From Gemmatimonadales bacterium (lineage in GTDB: Bacteria; Gemmatimonadota; Gemmatimonadetes; Gemmatimonadales; GWC2-71-9), in assembly GCA_037189525.1 (NCBI GenBank), contig JBBCJC010000005.1, forward strand, positions 704,001 to 768,000: a DNA stretch of 64,000 nucleotides, in the 5' to 3' direction. This document shows, piece by piece, positions 20,601 to 32,600 of this stretch (its first letter is position 1; each line of letters starts with the position of its first letter). Position numbers: made by a program.

Positions 20601-23600
20601 TACCACGATTCGCTACGCGCTCGGCTTGAGCGTCGACGATTTCCGGGGCACCCGAATGGTGAGCCATGGCGGCGCCACCGCCGGCTATCGTACCTATCTG
20701 GCCCGCTGGCCGGATCGTCAGCTGTCGATTGCAGTCCTGTGTAATGCCGCTCAAGCCAATCCGACGGCATACACCACGCAGATCGCCAGCCGGCTCCTGA
20801 ACGTCCCTGCCGGGCGCGAGGCCCCGTCGGCGCCGGTTGCCATCAGCCGCGCCGAGTTGGAACCATTGGTGGGAGTCTATCGGGATTCGACCAATGATCA
20901 GATCGTCCGTGTGACGATGTCGGGCGATCAGCTGACGGCTGCTCCTGGCGGCCTGCTGGTGCATCTGGGCGATCGGCGCTTCTGGAACGCCAACGCGGGC
21001 GAGTTGCGGTTCATTGCCTCGGGGTCGACCTGGAAGCTCGAACGGCCGCAAGACGGGTGGGGCCACTTCTCGCGTGACGAGGCGCCGCCTACGGTCCGCT
21101 CCAGCGACTATGTGGGTCGGTACCGGAGCCCGGAGCTCGAGGTCACGTATGAGGTCGTCTCGGATTCAGCCGGGGGACTCACGCTCAAGGTCCGACGTGC
21201 GGGCAACCTACCGCTCCGTCCCGCCTACACGGATGGCTTTGCGGCGGGTGGAGGACGAACCATTCGTTTCACCCGGGATCGCCGCGGTACAGTCACCGGC
21301 TTCCGCGTATTTGCCGGCCGAGCACTCGGCGTTCAATTCGCCATCATCCAATAAAGAAACGTTAGGCCCCTCGGGAAAGCGAGGGGCCTCATGAAAGGTT
21401 AGCTCCAGCAGCGGGAAAGGGACTCTGTCACCTGAGCAGACGCTCTACATGAGTGCCAAGAGGGTTCTCTAAAATGCGCCGAGCGAGTATCCCGGACATC
21501 CTAGCGGCCGCGAAACTTACACCACTATAGACCTGCTGACCTCCGCCCAAGGATCTAGCCAACAATTGGTGTCCTTTACACGACAACTCAATATCGTCTT
21601 CCGGTGAATAGACGAAATTTTCCGTTTGGCTTGGGCCTGCAAGACGGACCCCAAACACGTTGTCAAAATACGCGGGATAACACTCATTACCACCTCCCCC
21701 AGCGGCAGCGATCAATATTACCCCGGCACTCCTTGCCATTGAACACGCCCGGTACAAGTGACCAATAGCCACTTGCGACGTCGACCCAAGACTGAGATTA
21801 ATTATGTCTGCTCCATACCGTACCGCATAGTCGATTGCCTCAGCAACCACGACCATCGATGTTCTGAGTTTGCGGCCGAACACCTTAAGTGGAACAATCG
21901 TTGTATGGGGACACTCGCGGAGGATGATGTCAATACAGGCAGTTCCATGTCCATGGAAATCAGGCGCACCCAGTTGAACACGAGCCAGCCGTCTCCCATA
22001 CTCATCAACAAACGACGCACCAGGCAAGACACCGGGCTCACTGACGTAAGGATCCCAGCCGCTATCAACCACTGCGATCAACACTTTCCCCTGAGCGCCT
22101 GGGAAAGTCATTCAACCAGCCTTGTCCGCCGCGTCCAAGGACAGGGCTGGCCGAGCCACATACCTCCGGACGCGGCGTGCGATAATTGCTCCTATACGCC
22201 CTGACTCCGTAACAACATTCGCACGAACGGACAAGCCGTTCCGAAGCCAATCTAACGAATCTGCTACGCGGTCTACATCGACCTCAACACGAAACACCCC
22301 AGCCTCCGCGACCCGGTATTGAGCAGTTGTACGATCCGCTGGCTGAAATCCAACGTAGCGAACGTGCCCGTCCAACCTTAGATTCGCCCCTCCCCGATTA
22401 GGAAGAACATCGATACGAACACGAGCACCGAGTGGAATCTCCGCGATATCCCGCTCCTTGAAGAACGCGGTTACCGACCATTTCCCACTCTCGCCAATCT
22501 GCGCAATAGCTTCACCTTCAGCAACAACTCGGCCTACCGCGTGCCTAAGTCCGTCGGAAAGAATAACTCCGTCAACTGGCGCAACAACCAGACTCCTGCG
22601 GAGCGAGGACTCGACTAGACGTCTACGCGCACGAGCCGCATCAACCGCAGACAATCCGCGAGATATCCGAAGGCTATCTGCCCTTAACGCAACCAGCGAT
22701 GCCCTAGCTGCCGAAATAGCGGCCAATGCAGCACGTAAATCTGCAACTGCAATATCCAACGCAACATGCTGGCCCTCCGAATACGTTGCCAGAACCGAGT
22801 CGACATCAGCAACGACGTTATGGTCCGTTAGGACAGACCTTAACCGAGCACGATGGGCAACGGCTATTGCCTCCGCACGAGCGACTTCGAATTCCTGACG
22901 ACTGATCTCTTGGGGGATCGACAGTCGCACGCCATCTAGCGACAATCCCGCATCGCGCAAGTCTGCATCAGCAAGAGAGCCTTCGAGCAACAGCATTTCA
23001 CTATCTAGTGAGAACAATGAATCCCCGGCTTCCACTACCTCGCCGCCATCGGCATACACCGCCACGATACGCCCGCTTCTCTGAGCCCGAACATCAACCA
23101 CCTGATGGTGCTCGATAAAACCTGATCCTGCTGACACTAAGTCGATCGGCAACAAAAAAAGGCACGCCGCAATCGCCAAAAACGAAATCACAATCCAACG
23201 GCGAATTGCCCGTACGATTCGCTCCACCATACGGACGACAGGCCCATTGAGGGTGATTTCCTGACCTACCCCCCTCTCGCCATCTCGGATCAATCGGCCT
23301 GAAGACATAACTATGATCCGTTCTCGACCAGGTTCGCGGCAATCCTGCGACGCGGGTCGCGGGTCTCTGACGTCCCTTCAAACGTGTATACTCTGTCAGC
23401 AAACTGAGCTATTGGAATCCGATGGGTAACCATGACAACGGTGGTTCCACTCAACCAACTTCTCATTCGCGACAACACCTCAGCCTCTGTCTTTGTGTCA
23501 AGCTGCGACGTCGGCTCATCGAGAAGCACAAGAGGCGCTCGTCGCGCCAAGGTCCGGGCTAACGCAATACGCTGCCTTTCTCCACCAGACAATGCCACAC

Positions 23601-29600: not shown

Positions 29601-32600
29601 GAGCTTTGCCATTGCTCTACCCTCAAGTTATAAGATTATTAGACTGTGTATTGCTGACCTCGCCTGACAATCCAGTGAACCCGACGACCCTTTCGTACCG
29701 CCAGTCGCCATCATGTGTATGTTTAGCGTACCGAAGCGTACCAATTAGGAGAGGACGCTTACACGGCTAGCGCCAACCAAGACACCGAACACAGTACCCC
29801 CTAATCGGACACCGCTGAGCCTACTGCGATCCGTCGTACGTACTTGCGTACCTTAAGAAGTAATCTTAGAATTGCGAAATCGACTAACCTGAGAATGGAA
29901 CTTACCCGCCATGTTAGTGCTGTCAAGTAGTGAGGCAACCTGGGCATTGCCAGCCGCGCTAGACATTGCGCACCGTATTGGTTCGCAGGCGATTTGGGAC
30001 TCTACCTCAAAATCATGTACGTGGAATATTCGTTCGGTTGATTGGAAGCGGCCGTCATCAAGAGTCAGCGTAGTCTCGCCCGCAGGCATCGACTTATACC
30101 AGGGCGTATCTGGAATAGTCGTATTCCTCGCCGCTGCCTACCCCTACGCCCCTTCTGCACATATGCTCCGAGTAATTCGTGGTGCATGCAGATTTCTCTC
30201 GACAGGGGCCCAATCTCTTCCACCGGGCGCGTGCAGCTTTTTCGTTGGGAGAGTAGGAGTTGCTTGGGCACTCCTGTCGGCTGGTAGGTCACTCGGCGAT
30301 GAGAGGTGGAACGCGCCTGCGAAGAAAATTCTAGAGTCATTGGCCGGCCACGAGAAAAGTGACACAGCACTTGATGTTGTTGGGGGCGCTGCCGGCGCTA
30401 TTCCGCCACTGATTCGCATGGGACAAGATCTCCGAAGCGACCGCCTACAGGATACAGCATTACGCTATGCCGACCGGTTAATATCCACAGCAAGACGGGG
30501 ACCTTCTGGATGGTCAATCCCTTCAACGAGAATCTCGCACGTTCGTGACCTTACTGGACTTGCCCACGGCGCCGCCGGAATGACACGTGCTCTCCTTGAA
30601 GCCTATCTCCTGTCAGGACGCACCAAGTACCTTTACGGATCCGAGGAGAGCGCTGCGTTCGAGAATAGCTACTATAGTGACCACGAACAGAATTGGTTCG
30701 ATTTCCGCCATGACTCTCTCGGAGAGCTCGAAGCCGAAGGGCGCCTCAGCCAGCTCCGAACGAATCCTTCTCTTCGGAGTGCCATTCAGCCATACAGAGG
30801 GCGTTTCATGGCCGCATGGTGTCACGGAGCGCCTGGAATCTTGATGGTTCGCCTTCGTACGGCACAAGTTCAGAATACGTCAACGGCTATTGCTGCCGCT
30901 TGGAGGGCAGTCCCTGCAACTCTCAGATCCGTTGAACGGATTACCTCGGGATTCAGTCTCTGTCACGGGGTTTGTGGAAATGCTGACGCCCTAATTTTTT
31001 CGGCCGAAGTCCTTTCAGCGCCTGAAGTCCGTCAAAAGGCAATGAACGCACTCCTCCACGGCGTCAAGGAGTACGTTGGTACCGGACGGTCATGGCCCTG
31101 CGGCACGGTTGACGGATTGGTTGACCCGAGCCTAATGCTAGGTGAGGCGGGAATAGGGCTTTCTCTGCTACGAGCCGTGGACCGTAACCTCGAATCGCCG
31201 CTTTTGCCATCAGGGGTTAATGTCGTCAAACCCCATTCATCCATGGCAGTCGATGACGACCTATTAGCCGAAGATCGGAGCCTTTTCTTTAGTCAAAGCC
31301 TGATGCAATCACCTGACCTGATTGCAACGGCCAATCGGTTGCGAGACCCGGCGTCGGGCATTAGCGCTGCCCGCTCGTTACTCTTGGCAGTACACGAAAG
31401 TGTACCGCCGACTGATGCACATGTAGCTTACGTTCGGTCGACAGAAATTGCGCGGTATGAAGTTGCACGAGACCATAGCCGTGTTGCTATTTTTCTCAGC
31501 TCGGTTGATCAACCTCCCGATATCGATTGGCTCTCGGCTCGTATCGTTTTCGCAGAAACGACTAAAGTTATTCCCTCCCCTGAGTCTGATAGTCATCAAG
31601 CCCCACCAGAGGATGGAACGCTAATCTTTGCCGACCTAAACCAGATATATGTACGCCCGATCGGTCGCTTTCCCCTGCTTGTACTTCAGGCTATTGAGGG
31701 ACACGATGGACTAGCAGATATCTGTTCATTCGTGGCGTCAAATCTTCCGAACGGGGATCCGAGCGACCCACGCCTTGTACAGAAAGTCATAGATCAGTTG
31801 ATGTCTTTTCATAGGGCGGCGATTGTTTCGTGCGCTCCACTTATGACTCGACTTGATCGCAGCAACGCGCAGTTCCCTTGAGGAATGACGCAGCCTGATC
31901 CACGTTTGCGGTGTTCCGTCACCTTAAGGGGCTAAGATTATCCAATGACGTCGGCCACAGTCGATCCGTGTTCCGACGCGGGCGCGGAAGGATGCCTAGC
32001 CTACGATCGCCTGGAAACGCTTTATCACTCCCCGTTTCTCACAATGCGGTCCGGCCGCAACACATCAGTCATCACGATTGCGTGCCTACCCCCTGGTGAA
32101 AACTCGGACTGACTCCCCCAGTACCAATCTAGGAGCTGCCTCTCCCGTTCAGATCAATCCCATGCCAGGAAAATCGCCGTGATCGCGGTATGCTAGTTCA
32201 ATCCGACAAAGCGCCTCATCCAGGCCTCTCGGCAAACAAGACTAAACCATCCTCTACCTTCAAGGCAAACTACCTCTAGCAAAAATGACCCGCCACCCTA
32301 CGGAGCTAATAGAACAGAGAATGCTGCCTGTTGAAACCTGAATCCCTGGGTGGTGCTCCCAATAATGAAGGGTGGTGCAGTAGAACTTACTGCACCACCC
32401 TTCATCTCAGCTAACCGTCGTACTAGAAGTTCGGATTGTTGTTCCGCTCGACGTCCGGCAGCGGCAAGCAACGGACGGAGCCGTATACGCCACCCTTCGG
32501 ACGATTGGCCGTGCCACCGGTGACCCGCTCCTGCGGAATCTGGAACGACACACCAGCCGCCGGATCGAAAGGCACATTGAACCGGATGTAGTCGTATCCA

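Follow-up and report, generated by a model that had tools for sequence, protein, structure and literature searches.

Class I lanthipeptides of the geobacillin I and nisin type are made by tRNA-dependent dehydration followed by Zn-dependent cyclisation, with a one-piece LanB, an FxLD leader and a cyclase without an RRE. Pinensin, which is antifungal, is the closest characterised relative of the system described here, and we take the Chitinophaga pinensis class I precursor considered below to be its precursor, PinA. In C. pinensis DSM 2588, LanB is split into PinB1 and PinB2 (PMC9680876 and bioRxiv 2020.03.13.990614) and PinC is a LanM-like class I cyclase (same preprint). The peptide has two MeLan rings (PMC10125368), against seven in geobacillin I (PMC13343206). 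The C. pinensis leader reads KLSIDDLKIDSF (supplement row 18 of PMC7268733). Walker et al. (2020) place the pinensin precursor in family I 17, and its NCBIfam model is NF038180; PinC would be WP_012792925.1, provided that the row of the Walker table with this accession is the pinensin cluster. The class I lanthipeptide SapT also arises through a split LanB (SptBa/SptBb; PMC9011353), in which SptBb is a syn-glutamyl lyase lacking the catalytic His; its leader and core size are unlike those of the peptide below. In QHNDH biogenesis, a small protein with thioether cross-links loses its leader to the short S8 protease QhpE and is then exported by an ABC transporter (PMC7876137); the QhpC cross-links are made by a radical SAM enzyme. 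TglI and NGO1945 are DUF2063-type RRE partners of MNIO enzymes.

As a preliminary description had reported, the window (the 64,000-nt stretch of Gemmatimonadales DNA analysed here) contains a low-GC island with a split LanB, a 656-aa LanC, an ABC exporter, an HlyD protein and an S8 protease (Table 1; TIGR03891 matches at 90.2 bits). GC content is 0.525-0.578 over 21-33 kb compared with 0.655 for the genome, and GC3 of the island genes is 0.50-0.59 compared with 0.76-0.81 in three flanking genes. In a genome of the same genus (G126) the island is absent at the matching site, where the flank orthologues (85%, 83%) lie about 120 nt apart. A repeat search found nothing notable within the island. 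A contig of sequencing run X1 is identical over positions 21000-32500; this run is possibly the source of the same DNA and so not independent. The search of sequencing runs listed no RNA run carrying the sequence.

Table 1. Features of the lanthipeptide island, in window positions
Feature	Position	Strand	Description
Low-GC island	21400..32360 (approximate ends)		About 11 kb, inserted between serine hydrolase and susD
S8 protease	21428..22111	minus	227 aa, QhpE-like; Asp, His and Ser motifs
HlyD-family adaptor	22112..23308	minus	PF13437, 64.6 bits
ABC exporter	23311..25023	minus	570 aa; membrane and ATPase Pfam domains, no C39 peptidase domain
Stand-alone glutamyl lyase	25145..26005	minus	About 286 aa; PF14028, 111.8 bits
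LanB glutamylation protein	26007..28775	minus	922 aa; PF04738, 100.1 bits
lanA precursor	29271..29612	minus	113 aa, ATG start, 16 Cys
lanA leader	29532-29612	minus	Residues ~1-27; end inferred from the family GTVxG column
lanA core		minus	Residues ~28-113, about 85-86 aa; 16 Cys, 15 Thr, 10 Ser
Shine-Dalgarno-like GAGGG	29620-29624	minus	7 nt ahead of the lanA ATG, read from the sequence
LanC cyclase domain	29911..31200	plus	Residues 1 to ~430; PF05147, 169.2 bits, residues 57-426 of 656
LanC C-terminal module	31231..31881	plus	Residues 441-656; helical domain and RRE/winged helix, TglI/NGO1945-like predicted fold

The genome, which is 98% complete, holds one PF04738 gene, one PF14028 gene and one leader match. 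A thiopeptide was rejected on the single PF14028 gene together with the absence of any YcaO match (PF02624) in the genome; likewise, a sacti- or ranthipeptide and an MNIO-modified RiPP were rejected, as the genome has no match to SPASM rSAM (TIGR04085) or MNIO/DUF692 (PF05114). The genome's other LanC-like gene encodes an N-terminus resembling a signal peptide, and a look at its surroundings revealed no ORF with the leader.

The precursor had been described as an uncalled ORF upstream of lanB, and it indeed lies there, divergent from lanC on the opposite strand, with the leader motif LKLNLDDLEVESF. The Cys and Thr counts given earlier for the core were correct, Ser numbering ten rather than nine; the GAGGG is likewise present, at a spacing of 7 rather than 8 nt. 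The exact protein is absent from a collection of 15 billion proteins although the neighbouring LanC is present there, so lanA is uncalled in it. To the doubt voiced earlier, that the ORF might be a chance frame, a leader HMM gives a clear answer: built from 11 relatives without lanA, but relatives that had been found using lanA, it yields one match of at least 10 bits among the 171,113 ORFs of the genome, lanA itself, at 47.8 bits. The independent model NF038180 also has lanA as its sole match in the genome (22.3 bits, and 21.3 bits in another scan, both under the cut-off of 24). Cys number by itself would be insufficient, since 16 Cys occur in 2 of the 14,852 ORFs that are 90-140 aa long. A chance frame, or a silent and decaying imported island, would fit the uncalled lanA, the missing clear Shine-Dalgarno sequence of several island genes and a scan of 28700-30000 that found no sigma-70-like promoter and no terminator (about one of each being expected by chance). 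We nevertheless consider it very improbable: the leader match is unique, none of the seven island frames is interrupted, their abutting arrangement is that of related clusters, and the enzymes retain their catalytic motifs. Judged by its leader, the lanA ORF is real, and it is almost certainly the substrate of the island's enzymes.

The peptide had been presented as a one-off new scaffold with no relative in 5.8e9 proteins. This does not hold: phmmer finds 11 relatives and a profile search 134, some of which carry the NCBI name 'pinensin family lanthipeptide', and lanA is a member of this large family with a pinensin-type leader. NF038180 is matched at E<=0.01 by 28 of 35 aligned members, and the KLxxDDLxxxSF pattern is common to lanA and the C. 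pinensis precursor (supplement row 18 of PMC7268733). Relatives have a median of 8.5 and a maximum of 21 Cys, with 16-21 in 19 among the 120 matches listed; 16 Cys is high for the family, not extreme. In the family cores, Ser/Thr is enriched directly before Cys (197/363, z 14) with a four-residue period, which for lanA alone is not significant (z 1.3, position -1). Insect antifreeze proteins are also Thr/Cys-rich; this likeness of composition was set aside, the period here being four residues. In pinensin a GG site precedes a core with two Cys, whereas lanA lacks such a short two-ring core and instead has 86 residues, with GG reduced to V-E-G; its predicted product would be about four times the size of this closest characterised relative. 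We read the peptide as a new form of pinensin-type class I lanthipeptide with a protein-sized (Thr-Cys-x-x)n core. The family is chemically unstudied; our search, mainly of openly readable literature, found no paper on lanA-like precursors, and an earlier mention is possible.

The full set of six genes for modification and export recurs in seven other loci (L012, L015, L022, L025, L102, L103 and L105), five of which encode a precursor of 93-125 aa with 8-14 Cys. L012 has all six genes yet only a 53-aa, 4-Cys peptide, and in L025 no precursor was found beside the full set.

Class I membership is seen domain by domain, in the LanB glutamylation and elimination domains (PF04738 and PF14028, each scoring above its cut-off), a separate LanC with Cys/Cys/His plus His, and a precursor adjoining the enzymes. 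Among the matches listed, the only solved relative of LanB is TbtB (6EC7, E 7e-18). LanB and the lyase are two genes, the lyase ATG at 26005 lying 1 nt past the lanB stop; a frameshift as the origin of the split was rejected, given that the genes are separate in related loci too and that the X1 contig is identical. The lyase aligns to MibB (5EHK) at WFFVRY and YEPEVVRYGG, with a non-significant stretch at SLLHMTSNR. Because it shares the MibB SLLHMTxNR motif, unlike SptBb of SapT with its missing His, it is probably an anti-lyase.

The island proteins are divergent, the best LanC homologue having about 33% identity. No relative was confirmed when genome contigs were searched with LanC as a single query, and relatives there were retrieved with an alignment as query instead. 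Its best NCBIfam match is the cyclase part of TIGR03897 (221.8 bits), consistent with a LanM-like cyclase as in pinensin (bioRxiv 2020.03.13.990614). The predicted fold of the cyclase domain resembles LanCL, CuvL, LicM2 and NisC. H219, C304, C351 and H352 are invariant across 62 homologues; from NisC, we presume them to be the Cys/Cys/His zinc ligands and the catalytic His. In a cyclase tree computed without PinC, LanC falls in a branch of 18 (SH-aLRT 96), which also includes the Bacteroidota-like split-LanB cyclases L171, L173 and L235; 17 of the 18 carry the C-terminal module. The pinensin cluster itself was not found in the genome of locus L057 or its genus.

The preliminary description had given the length of LanC and left its extension unexplained. 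In the predicted model these additional ~220 residues are a TglI/NGO1945-like RRE module, with a PqqD-like fold of three strands and three helices; pLDDT lies at 88-97 for the greater part of this domain. VIA Z is 10.8 to TglI (8hci_C, 172 aligned, rmsd 4.7), 10.3 to NGO1945 and 9.4 to the TbiB1 RRE (8.7-9.4 over PqqD and TbiB1), and Foldseek retrieves 3dee at E 2e-3. With whole LanC as query, Foldseek lists nothing but helical barrels, cyclase-like and other, and the module came to light only once it was folded alone; PF22106 occurs in 12 and PqqD in 3 of the 62 LanC homologues. In contrast to TglI and NGO1945, it forms one protein with a lanthionine cyclase, in a genome with no MNIO match. 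A complex prediction for leader plus module (0.57, best control 0.00) weakly supports putative leader binding. Across 160 loci fetched by cyclase alone, the module appears to travel with the leader, which is present in 9 of 14 loci with the module and 0 of 146, many of them short, without it; the count is partly circular, because seven of the nine loci had contributed peptides to the leader model. A system can do without the module, since L236 combines a split LanB and a 119-aa precursor (11 Cys) with a module-less cyclase. No description of an RRE-fused LanC was found in the accessible, mainly openly readable literature, including two RRE papers, and the TglI/NGO1945-like fold of the extension appears, on the model, to be new here.

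Pinensin also differs from the island in that the latter pairs an S8 protease with an ABC exporter lacking C39, whose TIGR01193 match starts at model position 168. The protease matches QhpE (NF049966) at 129.6 bits, below the cut-off of 165; among S8 proteases aligned from the clusters, D16 and H55 are invariant and the serine motif occurs in 5/5. It is probably the leader peptidase, by analogy to the role of QhpE, and alignment to the family GTVxG column places the likely cleavage after V-E-G (G27/Y28).

With moderate confidence, we propose that the island forms a pinensin-type class I system with lanA as its sole precursor, operating as follows. LanB would glutamylate core Ser/Thr from Glu-tRNA, and the separate lyase, probably following the usual anti mechanism, would eliminate glutamate to Dha/Dhb. 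The Zn cyclase would then add Cys thiols to Dha/Dhb, as in geobacillin I, while its own fused TglI-like RRE holds the leader. The QhpE-like protease would cut near V-E-G/Y28 in the cytoplasm, taking the place of the exporter-borne C39 domain of Bacteroidota-like clusters, and ABC and HlyD would export the 86-residue product.

The product probably has between 8 and 15 thioether rings, its other Cys being free or in disulfides, and would thus exceed the seven of geobacillin I, the highest class I count in the literature found. The earlier figure of up to 16 rings stands as a ceiling set by the Cys count, one that some relatives, having fewer Ser/Thr than Cys, cannot reach; the earlier view that the core is much larger than in characterised class I lanthipeptides is upheld. 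Full conversion of all 16 Cys to (methyl)lanthionine could draw on the 25 Ser/Thr of the core, which allow each Cys a distinct partner 2-5 residues away (16/16), and on viridisin samples in which all Cys were thioether-linked (PMC9680876). However, pairing falls to 14-15 of 16 if Ser/Thr must be N-terminal of Cys, relatives with 15-21 Cys often have too few Ser/Thr, and seven is the highest class I ring count in the literature found, which makes a 16-ring product quite improbable. A miniprotein that is mainly disulfide-bonded or metal-binding, in which LanB and LanC install only a small number of rings or dehydro residues and the majority of Cys stay thiols or disulfides, we rate as unlikely, if somewhat less so. 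CxC motifs, the even Cys count of lanA, the Cys surplus over Ser/Thr in 13 among the 120 relatives listed and the many family members with no modifying enzyme close by (50 long ORFs around 11 of them gave no LanB, LanC or SPASM match) would all suit it. A disulfide-only design does not hold, however, because Cys counts are odd in 18/35 aligned members and in 44 among the 120 relatives listed; the marked preference for Thr ahead of Cys is what a dehydratase substrate would show, and the active site of the cyclase is made up of invariant residues.

Should no more than half of the lanA Cys cyclise, the partly ringed product proposed here would still surpass geobacillin I, and class I enzymes would be capable of building a miniprotein stapled by thioethers. 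If LanC does carry an RRE of its own, class I cyclases would gain a further way of recognising leaders. At least 134 uncharacterised and highly variable peptides have the leader in common, so a single functional set of enzymes would make the family accessible to heterologous production; the lanA locus has one precursor and one enzyme set, with all genes intact. More tentatively, Gemmatimonadota and some Bacteroidota-like genomes may make protein-sized class I lanthipeptides with 60-95-residue (Thr-Cys-x-x)n cores, ten or more thioether rings and a cyclase with a captured TglI-like RRE. In genomes whose cyclases group with Longimicrobium, one such synthetase may also process 20 or more precursors scattered over the chromosome as a class I counterpart of ProcM/SyncM (Longimicrobium terrae has scattered precursors and a split-LanB/long-LanC set), and the lanA island would be the cleanest one-precursor test. 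That the product is an exported antagonist or signal whose target is not the producer's own kind is a rather doubtful guess, made because pinensin is antifungal and no recognisable immunity gene was found in the island. The host is a soil bacterium. In L015, L017 and L022 there are SusC matches next to the cluster, but their identity is no more than 28-34%; SusC produces 20 alignments in the genome, and in G126 the susD orthologue is located at the island-free site.

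The open reading frame in the gap upstream of lanB, uncalled and proposed in the preliminary description as a class I lanthipeptide precursor, is a real feature. A leader HMM built from 11 relatives, themselves found using the lanA peptide as query, matched only lanA among 171,113 genome ORFs (47.8 bits), which is strong evidence that the ORF is genuine. It was also the sole genome match of the independent pinensin leader model NF038180, with a score slightly below cut-off. Cys richness by itself is weak evidence: of the genome's 14,852 ORFs in the 90-140 aa range, 2 have 16 Cys. 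All Cys of the 113-aa product lie within positions 38-113. A core taken to begin at residue 28 or 29 holds 16 Cys along with 15 Thr and 10 Ser; the Cys and Thr counts first given thus stand, while nine Ser is true only from residue 31. GAGGG precedes the ATG, at 7 rather than 8 nt.

Precursor and modification genes of the cluster (window positions)
Feature	Position	Strand	Remark
lanA precursor ORF	29271-29612	minus	ATG start; in gap between lanB and lanC
lanB (glutamylation protein)	26007-28775	minus	solved relative TbtB, E 7e-18
lanC	29911-31881	plus	other side of lanA gap from lanB

Although the exact protein sequence is absent from a 15-billion-protein collection, the peptide is neither without relatives nor a one-off scaffold, as had been claimed: phmmer against 1.84 billion representative proteins found 11 relatives, and a 35-sequence profile 134, of which two, from Longimicrobium terrae, bear the name pinensin family lanthipeptide. 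As a lead only, the ESM Atlas returned 30 look-alike clusters, the best three (0.93-0.94; 99-110 aa) most often from Gemmatimonadota. Among the 120 relatives listed, drawn by a profile biased towards Cys-rich members, Cys number 5-21 (median 8.5), with at least 16 in 19 and an odd count in 44. Precursor cores contain a (T-C-x-x)n repeat: over 35 cores taken together, Ser/Thr residues are enriched at -1 of Cys (197/363, z 14, a value too high because related cores are not independent) and also at -5, +3 and +7. For the lanA core alone the enrichment is not significant.

Precursors adjoining the cyclase in loci fetched by the cyclase alone
Locus	Length (aa)	Cys
L104	125	18
L022	125	14
L105	107	13
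L146	101	13
L103	115	12
L024	116	12
L017	110	11
L015	93	11
L102	95	8
L016	64	6
L012 (this peptide only)	53	4

No precursor was found in L013 or L025. Besides the window's, seven loci carry all six enzyme and export genes together. Three Bacteroidota-like clusters (L171, L173, L235) share the long LanC type; L171 has GG-type leaders and an exporter that is C39-type by its N-terminal motif, and L235 has three precursors of 100-106 aa with 10 Cys. Three tandem Cys/Thr/Val-rich repeat ORFs (L057:5854-6600), near a short LanC from a different branch, are possibly precursors of another lanthipeptide type.

The predicted model of the window's cyclase (pLDDT 92.5) comprises a LanC barrel and a separate C-terminal module, which was also modelled alone (pLDDT 78.7). 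The module resembles TglI (Z 10.8, 172 residues, rmsd 4.7) and NGO1945 (Z 10.3), followed by the RREs of TbiB1 (Z 9.4) and lasso B1 (8.8) and by PqqD (8.7); an unrelated methyltransferase domain scored on a par (Z 10.4), over 91 residues only. Foldseek ranked NGO1945 and TglI top with weak E-values, and Pfam found NGO1945_C in 12 and PqqD in 3 of 62 LanC homologues. At E<=1e-10 there are 271 homologues, the majority of those listed being 640-700 aa long. Among 160 cyclase-fetched loci, many of them short, the module occurs in 14; a leader peptide accompanied it in 9 of these, 7 of which had fed the leader model, versus 0 of 146 without it. In a rapidly built tree of 100 cyclase domains, without fragments and duplicates, the window's cyclase falls within a branch of 18 (SH-aLRT 96), 17 of which bear the module; an eighteenth module-bearing cyclase (L014) lies outside. 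Another locus (L236, G215:C6) combines a split LanB and a divergent cyclase lacking the module with a 119-aa, 11-Cys precursor of the same leader type as lanA; that genome also has two long-LanC clusters.

The predicted complex of LanC 441-648 with leader residues 1-36 scored 0.57 (best control, 0.00), passing a mark that 116 of 157 solved pairs and 2 of 215 mismatched ones attain; passes at <=0.60 comprise only 18 solved pairs and both mismatched ones. At least 59% of contacts were common to the runs, and partner pLDDT was 51-52. The model hints that the module may bind the leader, but the pass may reflect likeness, since solved RRE-leader complexes exist.

By analogy, the lanA system would work like pinensin-type class I. 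Pinensin biosynthesis likewise uses a split LanB, PinB1/B2 (PMC9680876), and pinensin-family LanCs are described as resembling LanM cyclase domains (bioRxiv 2020.03.13.990614). In the supplement of PMC7268733, a C. pinensis precursor combines two Cys with the leader KLSIDDLKIDSF, an Algoriphagus precursor carries six Cys and a leader of that type, and the one Gemmatimonadetes row among those listed is of class II. With 16 Cys, the lanA product is not pinensin itself. For the phylum, the part of the literature covered (including PMC7291104, PMC11271474, PMC8692599, PMC7470986, PMC12710340, PMC12328550 and PMC9486935) gives lanthipeptide clusters as antiSMASH counts; we found neither precursors of this kind nor a LanC fused to an RRE described in it. 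The very-large-core family and the RRE-bearing cyclase seem to be uncharacterised, and the window's locus allows both to be tested directly.

Downstream of lanA, on the same strand, lie genes for the glutamylation protein, a lyase starting 1 nt past its stop, an ABC exporter without C39 domain, HlyD and a 227-aa, QhpE-like S8 protease. Two lyase motifs align with MibB, and SLLHMTxNR is also common to both, in a stretch non-significant by itself; its His is presumably catalytic. The lyase probably performs anti-elimination, because the syn-lyase SptBb is described as lacking the catalytic His (PMC9011353). The genome (98% complete) has one PF04738 and one PF14028 match and none for SPASM, YcaO or MNIO; substrate and enzymes therefore stand one to one. 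Most likely, Ser/Thr of the core would be glutamylated and then eliminated, cyclisation guided by the leader would follow, the S8 protease would remove the leader in the cytoplasm, and ABC-HlyD would export the product. The cut is placed tentatively near V-E-G/Y28, because of the family GTVxG column and the GG with which Bacteroidota leaders end; QhpE makes an equivalent cut on cross-linked QhpC ahead of ABC export (PMC7876137).

A product with 8-15 rings is most likely. Each of the 16 Cys has a possible Ser/Thr partner 2-5 residues away, as the 16 rings first given as an upper bound would need, but if Ser/Thr must precede Cys only 14-15 can pair. Moreover, Ser/Thr are fewer than Cys in 13 of the 120 listed relatives (core limits approximate), so Cys count does not equal ring count, and 16 rings are quite improbable. 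That the Cys are mostly disulfide-bonded or metal-bound is unlikely, if somewhat easier to entertain. As to function, we would guess that the product is exported as an antagonist or a signal; pinensin acts against fungi, whereas viridisins are reported to have no antimicrobial activity (PMC11270710).

Precursors also occur scattered in other genomes. One (G106; L184, L189-L207) has 20 NF038180 matches over many contigs, with 3-14 Cys per peptide, and another (G272:C2:371338, L188) has tandem precursors with 15 and 17 Cys. Around 11 such sites, 50 long ORFs included no LanB, LanC or SPASM family member, and the split-LanB clusters of these genomes hold only the 53-aa peptide (L012) or no precursor that we found (L013). 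These precursors may be processed in trans, although 4 LanC-like genes and 2 LanB loci are present in G106. In G106:C2 a TglI-like module copy (L211:8788-9408) directly follows three tandem precursors, with no LanC match beside it within the locus.

The cluster forms an island: its genes have a GC3 of 0.50-0.59, against 0.76-0.81 in flanking genes. In the same-genus genome G126, the orthologues from its two flanks (85%, 83%) lie ~120 nt apart. At E<=1e-30 the cyclase has a match in 10 of the phylum's 401 genomes and in 0 of the 5 from the genus. Among the island's long ORFs we found neither an integrase nor a transposase. CCAATAA stands at both ends (21348-21354 and ~32359-32365) and has one copy at the empty site of G126, a pattern that may stem from target duplication or from chance. 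A perfect 18-bp inverted repeat (32365-32405) immediately downstream of susD is probably its terminator. The window also holds three PF00144 beta-lactamase-fold serine hydrolase paralogues (14796-16448, 19708-21354 and 37823-39442), two with DUF3471, and the genome encodes, outside any RiPP cluster, a stand-alone LanC-like protein of 455 aa whose N-terminus is twin-arginine-like (G000:C2:574556-575656, L227).
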